DNA of 64,000 nt, taken from Escherichia phage AV123. The notes below the pieces were generated by a model. That model saw only the letters and a program-made list of their open reading frames with translations, did not search any database and had not been told where the DNA came from. The translations under genes were made by a program, and so were the position numbers. The stretch lies in the sequence record OR352953.1; one strand, written 5' to 3'. This document shows positions 26,065-57,462 of the stretch, in pieces (position 1 is the first letter of the stretch; the number at the start of each line of letters is the position of its first letter).

Positions 26065-26310
26065 ATGAGAAAATTTTTAATAGGTATGTTCTGTACATAT
26101 CCTGATAATAAAGTCAGTTCTACTAAAGTTTGGAATGCTATTGGTATGATTGTTATGTCCAGTATGTTTATTTATTTGGGAATTGATAAAGAAATTCCTG
26201 AATGGATGGGCTGGGCTTTTGTTTTTATGATCACACCATCCAGACTAATGAAGAATTTAATAGATTTACGTTGGGGCAGATCACCTGCCCCTGATAAGGA
26301 GGATAACTAA
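26065..26310 (+). CDS. small membrane protein (2 predicted TM segments)
   Basis: 81 aa with hydrophobic stretches AIGMIVMSSMFIYLGI and WMGWAFVFMITP. Weak RBS. Confidence 0.35.
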   Translation: MRKFLIGMFCTYPDNKVSSTKVWNAIGMIVMSSMFIYLGIDKEIPEWMGWAFVFMITPSRLMKNLIDLRWGRSPAPDKEDN

Positions 26311-47776: not shown

Positions 47777-48340
47777 TTAAATAATTTTATTCATGTCTTG
47801 ACAATGTAAAAGGTGTGAAATAGCTTTTCTAGGATCATCATTACCTAAACGGTATGTGTGAAATAAGTATAACCCACGTAGTAAACCTAGCCTTTTATTG
47901 TTAGCGTGTAATGCTTTAGAGAAAATTATATCAAACTGTATTGACCTTTCCTCAAAAGGGATTTCATTCCACAGACTCTTACGAAAGAGAAGAAAGAATC
48001 CTGCTAAGATAGCATCTGTAGGTACTTCCTCTATTGAGTTTCCCCATTCTAGATGTGCTCTTTTTGCAATCTCAATGTGGTGTAATATATTCGGATCTTC
48101 ACTTCTTTCATTATTAAATAATTGATATGTTGATCCCAATCTGTTACAAGATGCACCAAGAACATCAAAATCAGGATTTGAACGGACAATTGATTCCAGC
48201 CAAGCAGGTTGTTCTGGAAGAAGAAACATTGTATCAATGTCTCTTAGGCAAATCCAACTATCTTCTGGTAAGACACTTATTGTGTCATTGATACCTTTTC
48301 CAATATCTCCAGAAAGATAGGGAGTTATGTGAAATATCAT
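47777..48340 (-). CDS. putative glycosyltransferase-like protein (GT-A-like)
   Basis: 187 aa with an acidic DID motif after a hydrophobic strand (SWICLRDIDTMFLL). Adjacent to three other GT genes. Weak assignment. Confidence 0.35.
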   Translation of the reverse strand: MIFHITPYLSGDIGKGINDTISVLPEDSWICLRDIDTMFLLPEQPAWLESIVRSNPDFDVLGASCNRLGSTYQLFNNERSEDPNILHHIEIAKRAHLEWGNSIEEVPTDAILAGFFLLFRKSLWNEIPFEERSIQFDIIFSKALHANNKRLGLLRGLYLFHTYRLGNDDPRKAISHLLHCQDMNKII

Positions 48341-48397
48341 ACTCCCTCCGTATTATTACTTTAGCATTTTTAGACTAAAAAGTCCAAATGGTTTTAC

Positions 48398-48592
48398 CTA
48401 TTGATTACGTTTTGCGAGTTCCATTTGGATAGCTAAACTGTGATCTCGTGCTTCCATATACTCTTTATATGTTTCATTAAGATGATCACGACAAACATCA
48501 CGCAGTTTAATCAGTTTATCTGTAGGGATACCACTAAGATCATCCCAAGATTTTACAACTTCACCAGTATCATTGATCCCAATGGTTTTCAT
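48398..48592 (-). CDS. hypothetical protein
   Basis: 64 aa ORF in a tightly packed minus-strand operon. Confidence 0.35.
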   Translation of the reverse strand: MKTIGINDTGEVVKSWDDLSGIPTDKLIKLRDVCRDHLNETYKEYMEARDHSLAIQMELAKRNQ

Positions 48593-48848
48593 CTACAACC
48601 TCCTTAATTGCTACAGCACAGTTTTTGCAGATACACTGCCCTTTACCTTTAGAAATCTGAATGTAAGGTTCATTTTCATTTTCGCCCTTACGTGAGTCAT
48701 ATATTACAGTATTGAAGCACACAACGCAAATATTTTTTAAGATTGTATACTTATCAACTTTCTTTTTTGTTTTAAAGTTAACTTCAATAACATCAGCCAT
48801 CAGTGTAACACTCCCAGTATATTGCTTTGTGACATAACCATAGAACAT
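48570..48848 (-). CDS. zinc-ribbon protein (two CxxC pairs)
   Basis: CVVCFN ... CICKNC in a 92 aa ORF. Confidence 0.4.
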   Translation of the reverse strand: MFYGYVTKQYTGSVTLMADVIEVNFKTKKKVDKYTILKNICVVCFNTVIYDSRKGENENEPYIQISKGKGQCICKNCAVAIKEVVDENHWDQ

Positions 48849-49078
48849 TCAACATTATCGTGACTACGTGAAAAACGTTCCCAAACCTCTTCATCGACTC
48901 GTAAAGCTATACAAGGATAGACGTTATCATTGATCATTTCAATTGAATAAACATCCATATTGTCTTCGTCTTCGATGAACATCATTGCAAACTGTTCTAA
49001 ATGTTTCCTAATGTAATGTACATCCTCTTCTGTAAGACCAATAACAAGATAACTTGCAACGATAACGCCATCTTTCAT
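48800..49078 (-). CDS. hypothetical protein
   Basis: 92 aa ORF, overlapping its neighbours by short distances. Confidence 0.35.
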   Translation of the reverse strand: MKDGVIVASYLVIGLTEEDVHYIRKHLEQFAMMFIEDEDNMDVYSIEMINDNVYPCIALRVDEEVWERFSRSHDNVECSMVMSQSNILGVLH

Positions 49079-49088
49079 CTATATCTCC

Positions 49089-49598
49089 TTAGCGATAAAA
49101 TTGATGTTCTTTGTAGCGGTACACTAGAACCATATCTTTTTCCCAGTGTGCTCTTATTGTAGATTTTTTAAAGTATAATGCTCCTTTTGTAATATCTAAT
49201 GCAATTCGTAATTCTGGAAAATGCGTATCGAGATAAAGTAGACGTTCTGCTATAGCCTTAGCTTCCTTCCACTTATCACGTTCCATAACGTTGAATGTCT
49301 TTGTGTAAGAGAATTGTCCTTTTTGAAACAAAACTTCTTTTATAGTATCAGGGAAATATGAATCTCTAGCCCTATTCAATACTACATTACCAACAGCAGA
49401 CATACCGCGCTTTCCTTGATTACGACTTTCTGCATAGATTGCACAAGCTAATAGATTTTCTTTACTATCACGCTTTGTACACTTGTGAACTACTTTAGCA
49501 GTTTTTACGTTTGCAGCTTCGGCTTGCGCCACAACAGGTGTAAATGTAAAAGCAGTTAAGGATAGTAACGCAATTGCGACAAAGGTTTTTATTGACAA
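49089..49598 (-). CDS. cell-wall hydrolase, SleB/CwlJ-like domain, with N-terminal signal peptide
   Basis: Signal-like N-terminus MSIKTFVAIALLSLTAFTFTPVVAQAEA. Core LACAIYAESRNQGKRGMSAVGNVVLNRARDSYFPDTIKEVLFQKGQFSYT matches the cell-wall hydrolase pattern (AR.I.GEARGE....AVA.VVLNR....FP..I..V..Q..QFS). TTG start with AGGAGG RBS. Confidence 0.6.
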   Translation of the reverse strand: MSIKTFVAIALLSLTAFTFTPVVAQAEAANVKTAKVVHKCTKRDSKENLLACAIYAESRNQGKRGMSAVGNVVLNRARDSYFPDTIKEVLFQKGQFSYTKTFNVMERDKWKEAKAIAERLLYLDTHFPELRIALDITKGALYFKKSTIRAHWEKDMVLVYRYKEHQFYR

Positions 49599-49660
49599 AC
49601 TTGCCTCCTATTTTGTTAAACGAACTTTTATTGTAACACAGAAGAGGCTGTTTTGCAAGT

Positions 49661-49681
49661 GGAGGGGGATAACCCCCCTCT
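49661..49681. other. GC-rich hairpin (GAGGGGG-ataa-CCCCCTC)
   Basis: Perfect 7 bp G/C stem between minus-strand genes, no clear U tract. Confidence 0.3.
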
Positions 49682-49690
49682 TACATTCTG

Positions 49691-50293
49691 TTAGATACTG
49701 TAAACCTTCGTATGAGTTACTACACCATCTTCTACAAAATCAATACGTTCTTGATCCGTAACTAGTGCAGACAATACTTTAAATTTAATTGTTACACGTT
49801 CAAAAGCTGGTTGACCATCTTTAAGATAATTATGTTCAGTTGTTACTGTCTTGTTTACAAAATCAACTTTTGCTTTACCGTTTTCGCGCAAGTGGAATGT
49901 TTTTCCTGCTTTATACACAATTTCAACATTACCTTCGAGAGTAATTCCTTCAAAAAGTTCACCCTCTTCTTCATTTTCTTCATTTTTGAACAGACGACGA
50001 AACTCTTCCATATCAAGATAAACAACATCTTCAGAATAACTATCAGTAAGGTATGTCTTACCATCCATTAACCCGAAATATTGCCAGATTGCAGAATAAA
50101 CATCACTAGTTGATCCAAGGGTTTCTCTGAGTTTAGTTCCACGGATTACTTCATAAACTTCAAAATTGAAACCAGACTGCAAAGCATTAAACAGTACATC
50201 ACTAACTTCTAAAGCATAATCTTCATTGTTGTCAATATCCACAAGAAAATTACCGCTGCGAATAAGTTTTTGACCTTCTAAAGTAATACCCAT
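49691..50293 (-). CDS. hypothetical protein (Ter-cluster neighbour)
   Basis: 200 aa ORF immediately downstream of TerD on the same strand. Confidence 0.4.
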   Translation of the reverse strand: MGITLEGQKLIRSGNFLVDIDNNEDYALEVSDVLFNALQSGFNFEVYEVIRGTKLRETLGSTSDVYSAIWQYFGLMDGKTYLTDSYSEDVVYLDMEEFRRLFKNEENEEEGELFEGITLEGNVEIVYKAGKTFHLRENGKAKVDFVNKTVTTEHNYLKDGQPAFERVTIKFKVLSALVTDQERIDFVEDGVVTHTKVYSI

Positions 50294-50320
50294 TGTTTTC
50301 TCCTCTTCTATTTAAAATAT

Positions 50321-50336
50321 GCGCCCCGAAGGGCGC
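50321..50336 (-). terminator. terminator-like hairpin after TerD
   Basis: GCGCCC-cgaa-GGGCGC with AUAUUUUAAA downstream on the minus strand. Confidence 0.4.
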
Positions 50337-50345
50337 TATGATTTA

Positions 50346-50942
50346 TTACTCGAACCAATCGTCGCCAGCGCCAAACGCTTTAACTACATCATAAATGTCA
50401 AGTCCAGCTTTACCTACACCATATGCTTTCAGTTTCCATTCGCTATCTTCCCGCACCAGGGAGGCAACGTGGCAAATGGTATTACCTGCAAGTTCTGGAG
50501 CCAAGAAGTCAAAATCCAGCAGTTCAACGTTACGTTCATCATCGAAGATTTTAAGGAAACCTTCGGTAGCGTGACCAAGGCGTTTCTTACCCGTTTCGTC
50601 ATCAATAGTGATTACGAATGCAATTTCCTGTGCTTCAGCAGAGATATTATCCAGTGTAACATCAATCTGCTCCATTTGTCCTACACCGTCACGAACATCT
50701 TCACCTGCAAAAGTAGAACGTTCAGGATCAAATTTCTGTGCGTAGCATACCAGGTGGCGAGGAGACAACAGTTCCGGCAGACCAGATGCATTGTGTCGGC
50801 AAATCAGAGCACTAACATCCAGATCCAGTTTTTCGTTAGATTTCCAAGAGAATTCCAGACGAATGCGTTTCAGTGCTGGTGCAATCTTTTTCAGAGAAAC
50901 TTTTTCGCTAGAACCTTTTTTCAGGGAAATTTTCTGAGTCAT
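50346..50942 (-). CDS. terD: TerD-family stress-response protein
   Basis: N-terminus MTQKISLKKGSSEKVSLKK is typical of TerD-domain proteins (ISL.KG..V.L.K). About 198 aa, acidic Ca-binding-like segments (IDVTLDN, ITIDDETG), GxGxA-like C-terminal region. RBS AAGGAG. Confidence 0.7.
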   Translation of the reverse strand: MTQKISLKKGSSEKVSLKKIAPALKRIRLEFSWKSNEKLDLDVSALICRHNASGLPELLSPRHLVCYAQKFDPERSTFAGEDVRDGVGQMEQIDVTLDNISAEAQEIAFVITIDDETGKKRLGHATEGFLKIFDDERNVELLDFDFLAPELAGNTICHVASLVREDSEWKLKAYGVGKAGLDIYDVVKAFGAGDDWFE

Positions 50943-51014
50943 AATTTATTATCTCCTTTGTTGTTAATTTACGTTGTCTATTTTACTAATCTTTTCTACA
51001 AAGTCAAGCGTTTT

Positions 51015-51809
51015 TTACGCTTTTGCTCCAAATTTTTTAACCCACTCGCCAAACTCTTCGGATAGCAGTTTATTGTAAAGTTCTTCGTCAGACAAGGACA
51101 AATCTGCAATACCGATAAAATCAACGTTATCGTATTCTTTTGCCAAGTCTTTCAGGAATTTAAAGTTTGCATTACCTACACCAACCATAAACCAGTAAAC
51201 AGGAGTGTTGCGGTGTTTGTTCAGCAAACTACGTACTGCTGAAGTATCCATGTTCTCCCCGTCAGTTTGGAAGAAAATCATTGCAGGAGTACGATCAACT
51301 TGTGCATCAGTATCTACAACCTGTTCTACAACAGTACGTGTAACTTCTACACGTTCTTTTTTACCAGTTAGTTTAGCAAGGAAACCCTTAGCCGGAACTT
51401 CTTCATACTCAACGACTTCGCGTGTAATATTTTTCATAGGTACACTACCGAAGTATGTATCATAGATCTCTTGCATTACTGGAGCATAAGCTGTACCACC
51501 ATTGATGCAAACATTAGACATACAAGAGCCGACATAATCATCATATACATCAGCCGTTGCAGGAGGCAGTTCAAAAGAAGAACTATTGAAAGCCCACATG
51601 TCAATCTGTGCATTATCATCAAACTTCATACCAAACGGCAGCAGCTTACCTACAAAATCACTGACAGTGCCATCACGATACAGCTCACACATACTACCCG
51701 AAATATCTAAGGCGCTACCTACACGAAGAACAACATCGTTAATCTTTTTCTTACGCAGGGATACAGTAAGAGTTTCTTGACGTTTTTTAAGACTGATTTT
51801 ATTGGACAT
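51015..51809 (-). CDS. von Willebrand factor A domain protein, TerF/TerY-like
   Basis: MIDAS motif DISGSM after a hydrophobic beta strand; N-terminus ISLKKRQETLTVSL is TerD-like. Directly adjacent to terD. RBS AAGGAG. Confidence 0.65.
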   Translation of the reverse strand: MSNKISLKKRQETLTVSLRKKKINDVVLRVGSALDISGSMCELYRDGTVSDFVGKLLPFGMKFDDNAQIDMWAFNSSSFELPPATADVYDDYVGSCMSNVCINGGTAYAPVMQEIYDTYFGSVPMKNITREVVEYEEVPAKGFLAKLTGKKERVEVTRTVVEQVVDTDAQVDRTPAMIFFQTDGENMDTSAVRSLLNKHRNTPVYWFMVGVGNANFKFLKDLAKEYDNVDFIGIADLSLSDEELYNKLLSEEFGEWVKKFGAKA

Positions 51810-51810
51810 A

Positions 51811-52080
51811 TTATTTCTCCTTTCTGACTGTAATGTTAGTAACTTCTAAATCCACTTCTACCACTTCTGTATCATATAAAATACAGTTAAGTTGACCTCT
51901 TTGTGAACCGTTCAGACACATTGCTTGGTTTGTATTAACCTTAATAAACACTAAGTTTCTGAACGTATCTAAACCAGCATCTTGATAGGCAACATAATAT
52001 ACGAATGTATCACCTGTGTCAAGTTCTCCAAAACATTTAGGTTCATCTGATTTGTCGTCTTTGATATTAAATTTAAGCAC
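51811..52080 (-). CDS. hypothetical protein
   Basis: 89 aa ORF within the Ter-associated operon. Confidence 0.35.
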   Translation of the reverse strand: MLKFNIKDDKSDEPKCFGELDTGDTFVYYVAYQDAGLDTFRNLVFIKVNTNQAMCLNGSQRGQLNCILYDTEVVEVDLEVTNITVRKEK

Positions 52081-55114: not shown

Positions 55115-55705
55115 TTAACGACGACGTGAGCTACTAAAACTACGTTTCGACGAAGAATAACTTTTCGAAGACTTACTATAAGAGCTAATAGGACTTGAGT
55201 AAGACTTACGAGCAGAGTAATCACTATTCACTTTTGTTGTTGACGGGCGTGAATACGTTTGTACACTTTGCTGCTTAATTGTGTTTTGTTTAGTGGTTGT
55301 ATATGTATTCCCTTGTTTATCATAAAAACGATGCTTTTGTGTTGTATATGCTTTACTATTAGTTGTAGGAGCAGCGTTGTTATTGATAATTGTTGTATTG
55401 CTACCGCCATCTCTATAACCACCACCGCCACTATTACCACTCAACATATGACCAAGAAGCATACCTGTAGCAAACTCACCTACACCAGAAGAACCACTGC
55501 CGCCTCCTTGCACAACAACTGTTGAAGGTTGTGCAGGTGCTGCTTGAACAACTTGAGGTGCAGGCTGATTTACATATTGTTCATCTACCATCTGATTTGG
55601 TGTTTGTTGGTAACGTTGATTTTGTACATTTTCAGAATCATCACAACCTACCAGCAATGCACTACCTAAAACAACTGCAACAATAAAAGATTTAATGTTT
55701 TTCAT
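55115..55705 (-). CDS. lipoprotein with Gln/Asn-rich and glycine-zipper segments
   Basis: MKNIKSFIVAVVLGSALLVGCDD (signal peptide with lipobox L-V-G-C). GGGSGSSGVGEFATGMLLGHMLSGNSGGGG glycine-zipper-like. Ser/Lys/Arg-rich C-terminus. ATG at 55705 has an AGAGGG RBS. Confidence 0.55.
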   Translation of the reverse strand: MKNIKSFIVAVVLGSALLVGCDDSENVQNQRYQQTPNQMVDEQYVNQPAPQVVQAAPAQPSTVVVQGGGSGSSGVGEFATGMLLGHMLSGNSGGGGYRDGGSNTTIINNNAAPTTNSKAYTTQKHRFYDKQGNTYTTTKQNTIKQQSVQTYSRPSTTKVNSDYSARKSYSSPISSYSKSSKSYSSSKRSFSSSRRR

Positions 55706-55898
55706 TTGTAACCCTCTCATTTAAAGTCTCAACACAATTTTTAAAATCCCTAGAGAAACAATACATCTGTTCTCCGTTCCTGTTGATAGTAATTGTATGG
55801 TTATCAATGTATGTTGTCAAGATAAAAATCAAACAAAATAACCCTAAAGCAAAACAAATATTTTCAAACAGAATCCAAAGAACACGTAAAACTACCAT
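55692..55898 (-). CDS. small membrane protein (1 TM)
   Basis: 68 aa with hydrophobic N-terminal segment LWILFENICFALGLFCLIFIL. Confidence 0.35.
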   Translation of the reverse strand: MVVLRVLWILFENICFALGLFCLIFILTTYIDNHTITINRNGEQMYCFSRDFKNCVETLNERVTNEKH

Positions 55899-57255: not shown

Positions 57256-57462
57256 TTATTTGTTAGATTGAAAGATACCACGAAGTACCGCAAGAATGAA
57301 CGTCACACAGACTACACTCCAAAACGTTACAGGAACATGATGCCAGTCTAAGCCGATAATGTCAATCATATAGTTGTATGCTAAAAGCAGTAGCCAACTA
57401 GGGATTAACACAATCAAAAACACAACAATAAAACAACCTAATACTGCTAAAACACCTGCCAT
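57256..57462 (-). CDS. small membrane protein (2 TM)
   Basis: 68 aa, two hydrophobic helices (VLAVLGCFIVVFLIVLIPSWLLLLAY; VTFWSVVCVTFILAVL). Confidence 0.4.
   Translation of the reverse strand: MAGVLAVLGCFIVVFLIVLIPSWLLLLAYNYMIDIIGLDWHHVPVTFWSVVCVTFILAVLRGIFQSNK

Follow-up and report, generated by a model that had tools for sequence, protein, structure and literature searches.

The gene at 49089-49598 of the window (the whole 64-kb stretch of DNA analysed here) very probably codes for a Sec-targeted muralytic enzyme of the SleB type that acts in the periplasm. The role that we propose for it, which could well be right and could equally be wrong, is that of an accessory enzyme of lysis, which would reach the periplasm beforehand, be limited in amount by a TTG start codon and a gated leader RNA, and be restrained until the holin depolarises the membrane; the main endolysin would be a T4-type lysozyme, and an Rz/Rz1-like pair would finish the outer membrane.

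The window is a piece of a phi92-like genome of ca. 147 kb, and the large terminase gene begins at its position 1. The region around the hydrolase gene (window positions 48000-52000) is 99.5% identical to Escherichia phage ALITA, whose genome we have used in place of the parts that lie beyond the window, and over the same 4 kb the identity to the other phages among the best matches listed is at least 98.5%. All of them belong to the genus Justusliebigvirus, i.e., the phi92-like phages of the Stephanstirmvirinae. The hydrolase gene is already annotated and has been noted repeatedly in this well-sampled phage group. Its counterpart in phi92, gene 170 (labelled “endolysin”), is the same gene, of equal length and with identical neighbours, and the two proteins are 99.4% identical; the orthologues in Stephanstirmvirinae are annotated as “endolysin,” “putative cell wall hydrolase” or “sleB.” For the Justusliebigvirus BME3, a canonical endolysin and spanins have been described together with a second, SleB-like hydrolase that bears a signal peptide, the holin being not adjacent and the spanins separate (PMC12210895), and a Phapecoctavirus announcement names both lysozyme and SleB-like domains (PMC10793346). 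In the searchable literature we found no experiments on the phi92-like hydrolase or its close relatives and no biochemical or genetic tests of SleB-like proteins from phages of Gram negative bacteria, and a literature search for transcriptomics of Stephanstirmvirinae gave no result either.

The hydrolase and its probable export

The coding sequence and the parts of the protein discussed in this section are the following:

49089..49598, - strand: CDS of the SleB-like hydrolase, a pre-protein of 169 aa with TTG start and TAA stop, made of a signal peptide and a SleB/Hydrolase_2 domain
49515..49598, - strand: predicted Sec signal peptide (codons 1-28), from inspection and comparison with homologues
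49092..49514, - strand: predicted mature periplasmic enzyme, 141 aa, 16.6 kDa, pI 9.8
49443..49481, - strand: span with the codons of the only two cysteines, Cys40 (49479-49481) and Cys52 (49443-49445)
49428..49430, - strand: codon of Glu57 (in YAESR), the proposed catalytic acid, from alignment to SleB 4F55/4FET

A SleB-like cell-wall hydrolase had been recognised here in the preliminary description of this DNA, and both the limits of the ORF, which are exact, and the domain assignment have been confirmed. The match to Pfam Hydrolase_2 (PF07486, the SleB/CwlJ catalytic domain) has an E value of 6.5e-20 and 72.1 bits, for a gathering cut-off of 27 bits, and covers residues 61-168, spanning the whole 100-position model; PHROG 938 (“endolysin”) is matched with an E value of 1.5e-20. 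The AlphaFold model is of moderate quality, with a mean pLDDT of 73.6; the core reaches 84-96, and the low-scoring parts are confined to the signal peptide and residues 85-99. The sole significant PDB matches of the model in Foldseek were the SleB catalytic domains 4F55 and 4FET (E 3e-4 to 5.5e-4, probability 1.0, TM 0.68 on the target). Besides the fold, the protein shares with Bacillus SleB the motif YxE(S/A)R…NR, and Glu57, invariant in the homologue alignment, corresponds in the alignment to the Glu in the YGESRGE motif of 4F55/4FET, which we take to be the catalytic residue of SleB. As judged from its sequence, the product is a lytic enzyme of the SleB/CwlJ type, small and basic, and a homologue of the lytic transglycosylase SleB. 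Unlike the Bacillus enzyme, to which it is ca. 22% identical, the phage protein has neither the N-terminal PG_binding_1 domain nor the YpeB partner. Bacillus SleB requires muramic-delta-lactam and the peptidoglycan of E. coli does not contain it, so that activity of the phage hydrolase on E. coli sacculi is an assumption.

The N-terminus, MSIKTFVAIALLSLTAFTFTPVVAQAEA followed by ANVK, was judged by eye and by comparison with homologues. It is tripartite (n-region MSIK, h-region TFVAIALLSLTAFTFTPVV, c-region AQAEA), in agreement with the earlier reading of a classical signal peptide ending in AQAEA. The features are a basic residue (K4), an h-region from F6 to V23 whose best 10-residue Kyte-Doolittle mean is 2.5, a proline (Pro21), and two A-x-A motifs (residues 24-26 and 26-28). 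Most relatives of 60-80% identity have kept the arrangement A-x-A/ANVK (the slash marks the cut), with variation in the residues just before it, and for this reason we have placed the signal peptidase I cut after Ala28 (AEA/ANVK). In the mature part, Cys40 and Cys52 are nearly invariant in the homologue alignment and present too in the homologues of phages FV3 and phiTE; in the periplasm they would probably form a disulfide. The first internal methionine is residue 66, past Glu57, and therefore no active form without the signal sequence can be made.

Should the N-terminus stay uncleaved, the protein would instead be a SAR-type or signal-anchored endolysin of the inner membrane, freed or activated on depolarisation. 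We consider this very unlikely. The h-region is long (18-19 residues) and rich in Ala/Ser/Thr (10/22 residues), but this richness is its sole SAR-like trait: the A-x-A/A site with its upstream proline is conserved, the hydrophobic segment is ca. 30 residues away from the catalytic Glu57, whereas SAR domains abut the catalytic domain (PMC7692668), and no pinholin adjoins the gene. The homologue of the Pakpunavirus JG004 does have an N-terminal hydrophobic segment without an A-x-A site, whereas those of T5-like phages and Certrevirus carry short textbook cleavable peptides. A more peculiar feature is that the core of the h-region, LLSLTAFTFTP, is 94% identical among relatives and the catalytic core only 73%, a degree of conservation not usually seen in a signal peptide that is discarded. 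However, this conservation is partly found at the nucleotide level, with synonymous-site conservation of 0.62-0.79 in the first ca. 37 codons against 0.32-0.58 in the remainder of the gene. Conserved h-region nucleotides, synonymous sites included, point to a constraint on RNA or translation and not on the protein, which may cover part of the conservation.

Lysis genes and homologues

The hydrolase gene had been described as lying by the Ter cluster, off any lysis cassette and with no obvious holin adjacent, and so it does. Neither of the ORFs on its two sides (48398-49078 and 49691-50293) contains a hydrophobic segment, and none of the neighbours within 1.5 kb has a TM segment, i.e., no membrane protein adjoins the gene. 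With neither a holin nor a spanin next to it, its setting is not that of a canonical lysis cassette. Just upstream are two genes of the Ter cluster:

50346-50942: TerD, just upstream of the hydrolase gene
51015-51809: vWA-TerF, upstream of the hydrolase gene, beyond TerD

The gene order, which does not change even in metagenomic relatives of as little as 61% identity, runs from TelA, vWA-TerF and TerD to the hydrolase, then to small ORFs and finally to glycosyltransferases and the primase-helicase. We considered a functional tie between the hydrolase and the Ter cluster and have discarded it: the adjacency is kept within the subfamily, yet in other families the homologues are not accompanied by Ter genes, and hence no link is claimed.

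The lysis functions known from other phages were found elsewhere in the near-identical genome of ALITA. One of them is the following gene:

123277-123777 of ALITA: T4 gene-e-type lysozyme, 166 residues, PF00959 (Phage_lysozyme), signal-less

Over its full length this protein is 50% identical to the T4-type e proteins of T6 and others and 52.5% identical to that of RB69, and it has the Glu/Asp/Thr positions of T4 lysozyme. ALITA has two spanins as well: the i-spanin combines an N-terminal TM with a coiled coil, the o-spanin, which overlaps with it, has a lipobox, and both match Rz-like spanin PHROGs. The pair is located directly upstream of TerL, that is, just before window position 1 and ca. 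49 kb from the hydrolase. Three small ORFs of the window (26065-26310, 55692-55898 and 57256-57462), scattered membrane proteins that the preliminary description had put forward as possible holins or pinholins, are real and have one or two hydrophobic segments each, but none of ten small membrane proteins (window plus ALITA) matched a holin family in PHROGs or Pfam. Also for the rV5-like phage LL12 the published account gives the holin as “not positively identified.” The same description had called the lysis gene organisation non-canonical. This is right insofar as the lysis genes of the phi92-like phage are scattered as those of T4 are, a situation that is normal in large virulent myophages, and wrong insofar as a canonical e-type lysozyme and spanins are present. 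It had also named a separate canonical endolysin/holin pair, together with dispensability of the hydrolase gene for lysis, as the finding that would tell against the hydrolase as the lysin; half of this has been found, since the canonical endolysin, together with spanins, exists elsewhere in ALITA and the holin does not appear among the family matches.

The hydrolase as a candidate lysin that replaces the canonical endolysin must thus be abandoned, given the lysozyme and spanin pair of ALITA. A related idea, that it is the principal endolysin and is exported without a holin, is in our view improbable. Phi92 gene 170, many of its relatives and PHROG 938 are labelled “endolysin,” but these labels stem from automated or PHROG annotation and not from tests. 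The homologue of phage CR3 was “implicated in host lysis,” in the wording of its genome paper as relayed by PMC7344957, and in Certrevirus the SleB-like gene is followed by a two-TMD membrane protein, a holin candidate, that overlaps its downstream end (PMC7344957). In the phi92-like genome, however, there is no adjacent membrane protein, and a full-length T4 e-type lysozyme is found in matching numbers across the subfamily. At identities of at least 95% the phage database holds 55 records for this lysozyme and 54 for the hydrolase, and in the 60-90% identity bands 77 for each. The comparison is one of band counts, whose agreement suggests that both genes co-occur across the subfamily.

Hydrolase_2 domains were detected by tblastn in 1226 phage records, in very different contexts. 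In the Vibrio podophage phi-A318, a signal-less Hydrolase_2 protein is encoded inside the terminal lysis cassette, preceded by a gene that is a u-spanin candidate (lipoprotein signal plus C-terminal TM). From this position the family can probably act as a conventional endolysin on Gram negative walls. In a Rhizobium podophage the domain forms part of a large internal virion protein. For the hydrolase studied here, the possibility of a virion-associated lysin was rejected, the protein being free-standing, small and provided with a signal peptide. As for its homologues, gp368 of PA5oct was undetected in virion MS, and CB7_83 is missing from the virion MS table of the CB7 paper, which mentions the protein solely under lysis (PMC7344957).

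The versions with a signal peptide are all found in large virulent phages that have another endolysin as well, and their surroundings are early genes or genes of replication or nucleotide metabolism. Such a position, in T5-like, rV5-like and Pakpunavirus phages, fits a role during infection and a role in lysis equally well. The closest parallels are those of Vequintavirinae (rV5 SleB, PVP-SE1, Certrevirus CB7_83/phiTE_033) and T5p081, which have the same Pfam domain at 34-40% identity and share with the phi92-like hydrolase the signal peptide, the conserved Cys and Glu, a location apart from that of the main endolysin, and a hairpin upstream of the gene. Conservation of the SleB-like protein across Vequintavirinae, with a signal peptide, was already pointed out in the CB7 paper (PMC7344957), where CB7_83 is also reported to be toxic on expression in E. 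coli, as data not shown. The signal peptides have diverged and yet are classical, with …LPVVA/AP in the rV5-like FV3, MKAALLLVAALTFSFSSQA/SH in the T5-like AKFV33 and …APALA/KE in the Certrevirus phiTE. The neighbours are different in each lineage: rV5-like phages have rIIA beside the gene, Certrevirus has the two-TMD membrane protein, in T5 the gene belongs to the tRNA/early region, and in phi92-like phages it adjoins the Ter cluster. T5p081 itself is annotated as “cell wall hydrolase homolog (PF07486),” apart from the lys/holin pair, and a survey of Salmonella phages, in which the T5-like ones are noted for an “endolysin far from holin,” raises the question of which one is used (PMC11180984).

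Promoter and leader RNA

Upstream of the hydrolase gene there is a gap of 92 bp that holds a hairpin and a promoter. The elements of this gap are, in the direction of transcription:

49661..49682, - strand: GC-rich hairpin AAGAGGGGGG-TTAT-CCCCCTCC at the end of the upstream transcription unit, with no U-run in the window
49630..49658, - strand: sigma70-like promoter TTGCAA-17-TACAAT with extended -10 TG, directly after the hairpin
49642..49648, - strand: pyrimidine tract GCCTCTT in the promoter spacer, complementary to the Shine-Dalgarno (SD) sequence and predicted to sequester it in read-through RNA
49603..49609, - strand: SD sequence AGGAGGC of the hydrolase gene, 5 nt 5' of the TTG start

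The -10 element of the promoter is TGTTACAAT, an extended -10 that follows TTGCAA after a 17-bp spacer. We compared the leader with those of seven relatives whose proteins are 61-80% identical and whose intergenic regions have a mean column identity of 63%. Despite this divergence, the seven have kept the hairpin, TTGC(A/T)A, the spacer sequence AAGCCYCT, TGnTAnA(A/C)T, the SD core GGAGG and the TTG start. The GGAGG core is there in 7/7, with MAFFT shifting it by one column in some, and the hairpin is maintained with a changed sequence, followed by a T-run in the Klebsiella phage.

When the read-through RNA was folded, the spacer GCCUCUU paired with the SD and, in several sequences, the -35 region paired with the start codon. 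The probability of the SD being paired was 0.80-1.00 in read-through RNA (7/7) against 0.24-0.57 in RNA initiated at the promoter, and in 6/7 relatives SD pairing was above that of at least 97% of the shuffles of the promoter segment. RNAalifold also gives the pairings of anti-SD with SD and of -35 with the start, with a weak consensus energy and almost no compensatory changes. As true covariation is almost absent, the structure stays a prediction, for which the case is built on the per-sequence folding and the shuffles. The model predicts that the anti-SD that overlaps the promoter would silence read-through transcripts.

A similar arrangement is known at gene e of T4, where the ribosome binding site is sequestered in early read-through RNAs and translation is confined to transcripts whose promoter lies in the 5' arm of the helix (PMC3014915). 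In both cases the promoter lies within the DNA for the 5' strand of a helix that sequesters the SD and the start codon. There are differences, i.e., the promoter of T4 gene e is a late one (TATAAATA) and that of the phi92-like hydrolase gene is sigma70-like, the controlled enzyme is here the exported hydrolase and not the e-type lysozyme, and the helix is in our case a predicted one. At the e-type lysozyme gene of ALITA no inhibitory structure like that of T4 e was found (z-score +0.28). The papers on BME3 and iGC_PHA_EC001 report lysozyme plus SleB-like hydrolase and do not describe the layout of promoter and leader RNA; the arrangement of promoter and anti-SD appears to be new, being absent from the literature that we found on these phages.

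In other lineages the region upstream of the gene looks different. Vequintavirinae and T5 phages have a terminator and no promoter directly upstream, whereas the phi92 lineage has the promoter with the embedded anti-SD. In FV3, phiTE and JG004 the SD is preceded, at a distance of 10-25 nt, by an intrinsic terminator, and the stretch from one to the other contains no promoter. A tight limitation of output seems to be the theme that the upstream signals of these homologues share.

We also considered assigning a temporal class to the gene from its type of promoter, and this was rejected because sigma70-like promoters also precede structural genes. Sigma70-like matches favour the coding strand in the non-structural blocks (25 vs 5, 29 vs 8 and 16 vs 8) and show no strand enrichment in the structural block (16 vs 15), and the TTGCAA and TTGACA variants do not separate by genome region.

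Proposed role and alternatives

Taking these features together, the following course of events can be proposed. The hydrolase gene would be transcribed from its own sigma70-type promoter, right after the hairpin that closes the upstream Ter operon, and only mRNA initiated there would be translated efficiently, since in read-through RNA the spacer would pair with the SD and the -35 region with the TTG. The weak TTG start would hold the output low. The product would be exported by SecYEG and cleaved by signal peptidase I after Ala28, and the enzyme of 141 aa would fold in the periplasm, probably with the Cys40-Cys52 disulfide, and cut the glycan strands of the host sacculus with Glu57 as the catalytic acid. 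The main endolysin would be the cytoplasmic T4 e-type lysozyme, released by the holin, with the Rz/Rz1-like spanins acting on the outer membrane. The exported hydrolase would probably do no harm at low amounts in a cell whose membrane is energised; after the holin has fired, it would speed up or secure the breakdown of the wall.

We propose, by analogy, that this pattern of a pre-placed enzyme is that of Lys44 of phage fOg44 and of Lys of the Campylobacter phage F352. Both are endolysins with a signal peptide, exported independently of the holin, which acts as a trigger, and a Sec-exported, holin-activated endolysin has therewith a precedent in a phage of Gram negative bacteria (PMC7692668). 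The likeness extends to the tripartite cleavable signal peptide, which in the Oenococcus phage fOg44 and the Campylobacter Fletchervirus F352 is also well apart from the catalytic domain. The catalytic families are different: Lys44 is a muramidase and F352 Lys an SLT domain, unlike the SleB-type hydrolase described here. In addition, Lys44 and F352 Lys are the sole endolysins of their phages, whereas the phi92-like phage also has a cytoplasmic lysozyme of the T4 type.

The same exported enzyme might serve to remodel the periplasmic peptidoglycan during infection (loosening or turnover of the sacculus, cell enlargement, superinfection), acting at a low level through much of the cycle. To us this is rather unlikely, although the location of the genes speaks for it, the homologue being placed, in four phage lineages, with early genes or genes for replication or nucleotide metabolism and a long way from holin and endolysin. 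T5p081 belongs to the early region of T5 (lys/holin are T5p039/040), just beyond the T5 st0 deletion and hence retained, so that this deletion is uninformative as to whether the gene is dispensable; FV3_00002 overlaps the start of rIIA; the JG004 homologue is between DNA ligase and a phosphohydrolase; and the phi92-like gene is between the Ter genes and the glycosyltransferase and primase genes. However, T4 gene e also sits among non-late genes, and gene position alone therefore says little. The constant company of another endolysin speaks for such a remodelling role, and so does the low output that is built in (TTG start in 7/7 relatives, terminators upstream in FV3, phiTE and JG004), but the leader with a promoter in the hairpin is the layout that T4 uses for delaying a lysis enzyme. 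Soluble periplasmic lytic transglycosylases such as Slt70 are tolerated by E. coli at native levels, whereas the CB7 homologue is toxic on expression, and for the family no such function in phages has been demonstrated.

The signal-peptide SleB-like hydrolases of phi92-like, rV5-like and T5-like phages, together with the membrane-anchored version of Pakpunavirus, might form a conserved second arm of attack on the envelope, placed in the periplasm before lysis or devoted to wall remodelling. Unusual cis controls would fix the dose of the enzyme, namely a promoter helix that sequesters SD and start codon in the phi92 lineage, convergent with T4 gene e, and a terminator immediately upstream in the others. 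This is a speculative generalisation, more apt to fail than to hold. In practical terms, the “endolysin” label in phi92-, rV5- and T5-like genomes is to be taken as putative, and in the phi92 subfamily the protein is probably not the main endolysin. Those who mine these phages for enzybiotics will find two very different muralytic enzymes, and for recombinant work on the exported hydrolase the leader peptide must be removed. A modest question follows, namely why a Sec-exported glycan-cutter has been retained, beside a holin-dependent endolysin, in large virulent phages of several unrelated families. The leader similar to that of T4 e would, if true, represent convergent control of a dangerous enzyme.

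The Ter cluster and SleB-like genes of other phages

Throughout the subfamily, the hydrolase gene always lies directly downstream of the Ter cluster, which was located as follows.

50346-51809 and further upstream: Ter cluster of the window
L013:746-2233 and L015:1-2926: Ter cluster of two relatives

This phage-borne cluster comprises TerD and vWA-TerF, together with TelA in relatives, and in the near-identical phage ALITA a TerC is annotated at 64815-65792. Near the hydrolase homologues of other phage families we found no Ter genes. SleB-like genes from three other groups were compared.

L004:2995-3495: SleB-like gene locus of the rV5-like phage FV3
L006:2492-3022: the same in the Certrevirus phiTE
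L007:2324-2884: the same in the Pakpunavirus JG004

In all three the Shine-Dalgarno (SD) sequence of the SleB-like gene is preceded, 10-25 nt away, by an intrinsic terminator, with no promoter between the two. The FV3 gene has a 4-nt overlap with the start of rIIA, and the JG004 protein lacks a signal peptide and carries an N-terminal membrane anchor that looks uncleaved. Several database records named "Campylobacter phage", e.g., A145 (146 kb), are ca. 97% identical to E. coli phi92-like phages over the genes examined; MG065645.1 is among the records concerned with this naming. They are probably mislabelled, or come from phages grown on contaminating hosts.

Spanins and candidate holins

ALITA 7775-8441 (L001): i-spanin and overlapping o-spanin, immediately before window position 1
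26065-26310, + strand: membrane protein of 81 aa, encoded within the window's tail-fibre module
57256-57462, - strand: protein of 68 aa with a pair of strong TM segments, encoded within the window's Ter/phosphatase region

The ALITA spanin pair is found directly upstream of the large terminase gene, a location likewise reported for rV5-like phages. The o-spanin lipobox reads LMMTGC, and the later annotated start (8259) would drop the lipoprotein signal. The 68-aa and 81-aa proteins match class II holins in size and topology, with no holin-family match for either, and may correspond to the 61/81-residue candidates mentioned for the published Justusliebigvirus BME3.

Start region and leader of the hydrolase gene

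49488-49598, - strand: codons 1-37
49599-49690, - strand: upstream leader region
L008:2392-2524, L009:2400-2518, L013:2900-3024, L014:20-161, L015:2915-3024 and L016:1-128: leader region in relatives

Relatives share 94% identity in the signal-peptide core LLSLTAFTFTP, compared to about 72% in the mature domain, and synonymous-site conservation is 0.62-0.79 in the first ~37 codons versus 0.32-0.58 across the remaining gene. The comparison suggests nucleotide-level constraint at the 5' end. In the leader, the promoter overlaps an anti-SD tract (GCCTCTT, 49642-49648, - strand), and the promoter's -35 region could base-pair by complementarity with the TTG start region, an arrangement kept in 7/7 relatives. 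The SD and start codon are predicted, from modelled pairing, to be hidden in read-through RNA and not in promoter-initiated RNA, similar to the control of T4 gene e. The start codon itself is TTG (49596-49598 in the window) in all seven, accompanied by a near-perfect SD. Selection seems to have kept translation of this exported, potentially toxic enzyme low.
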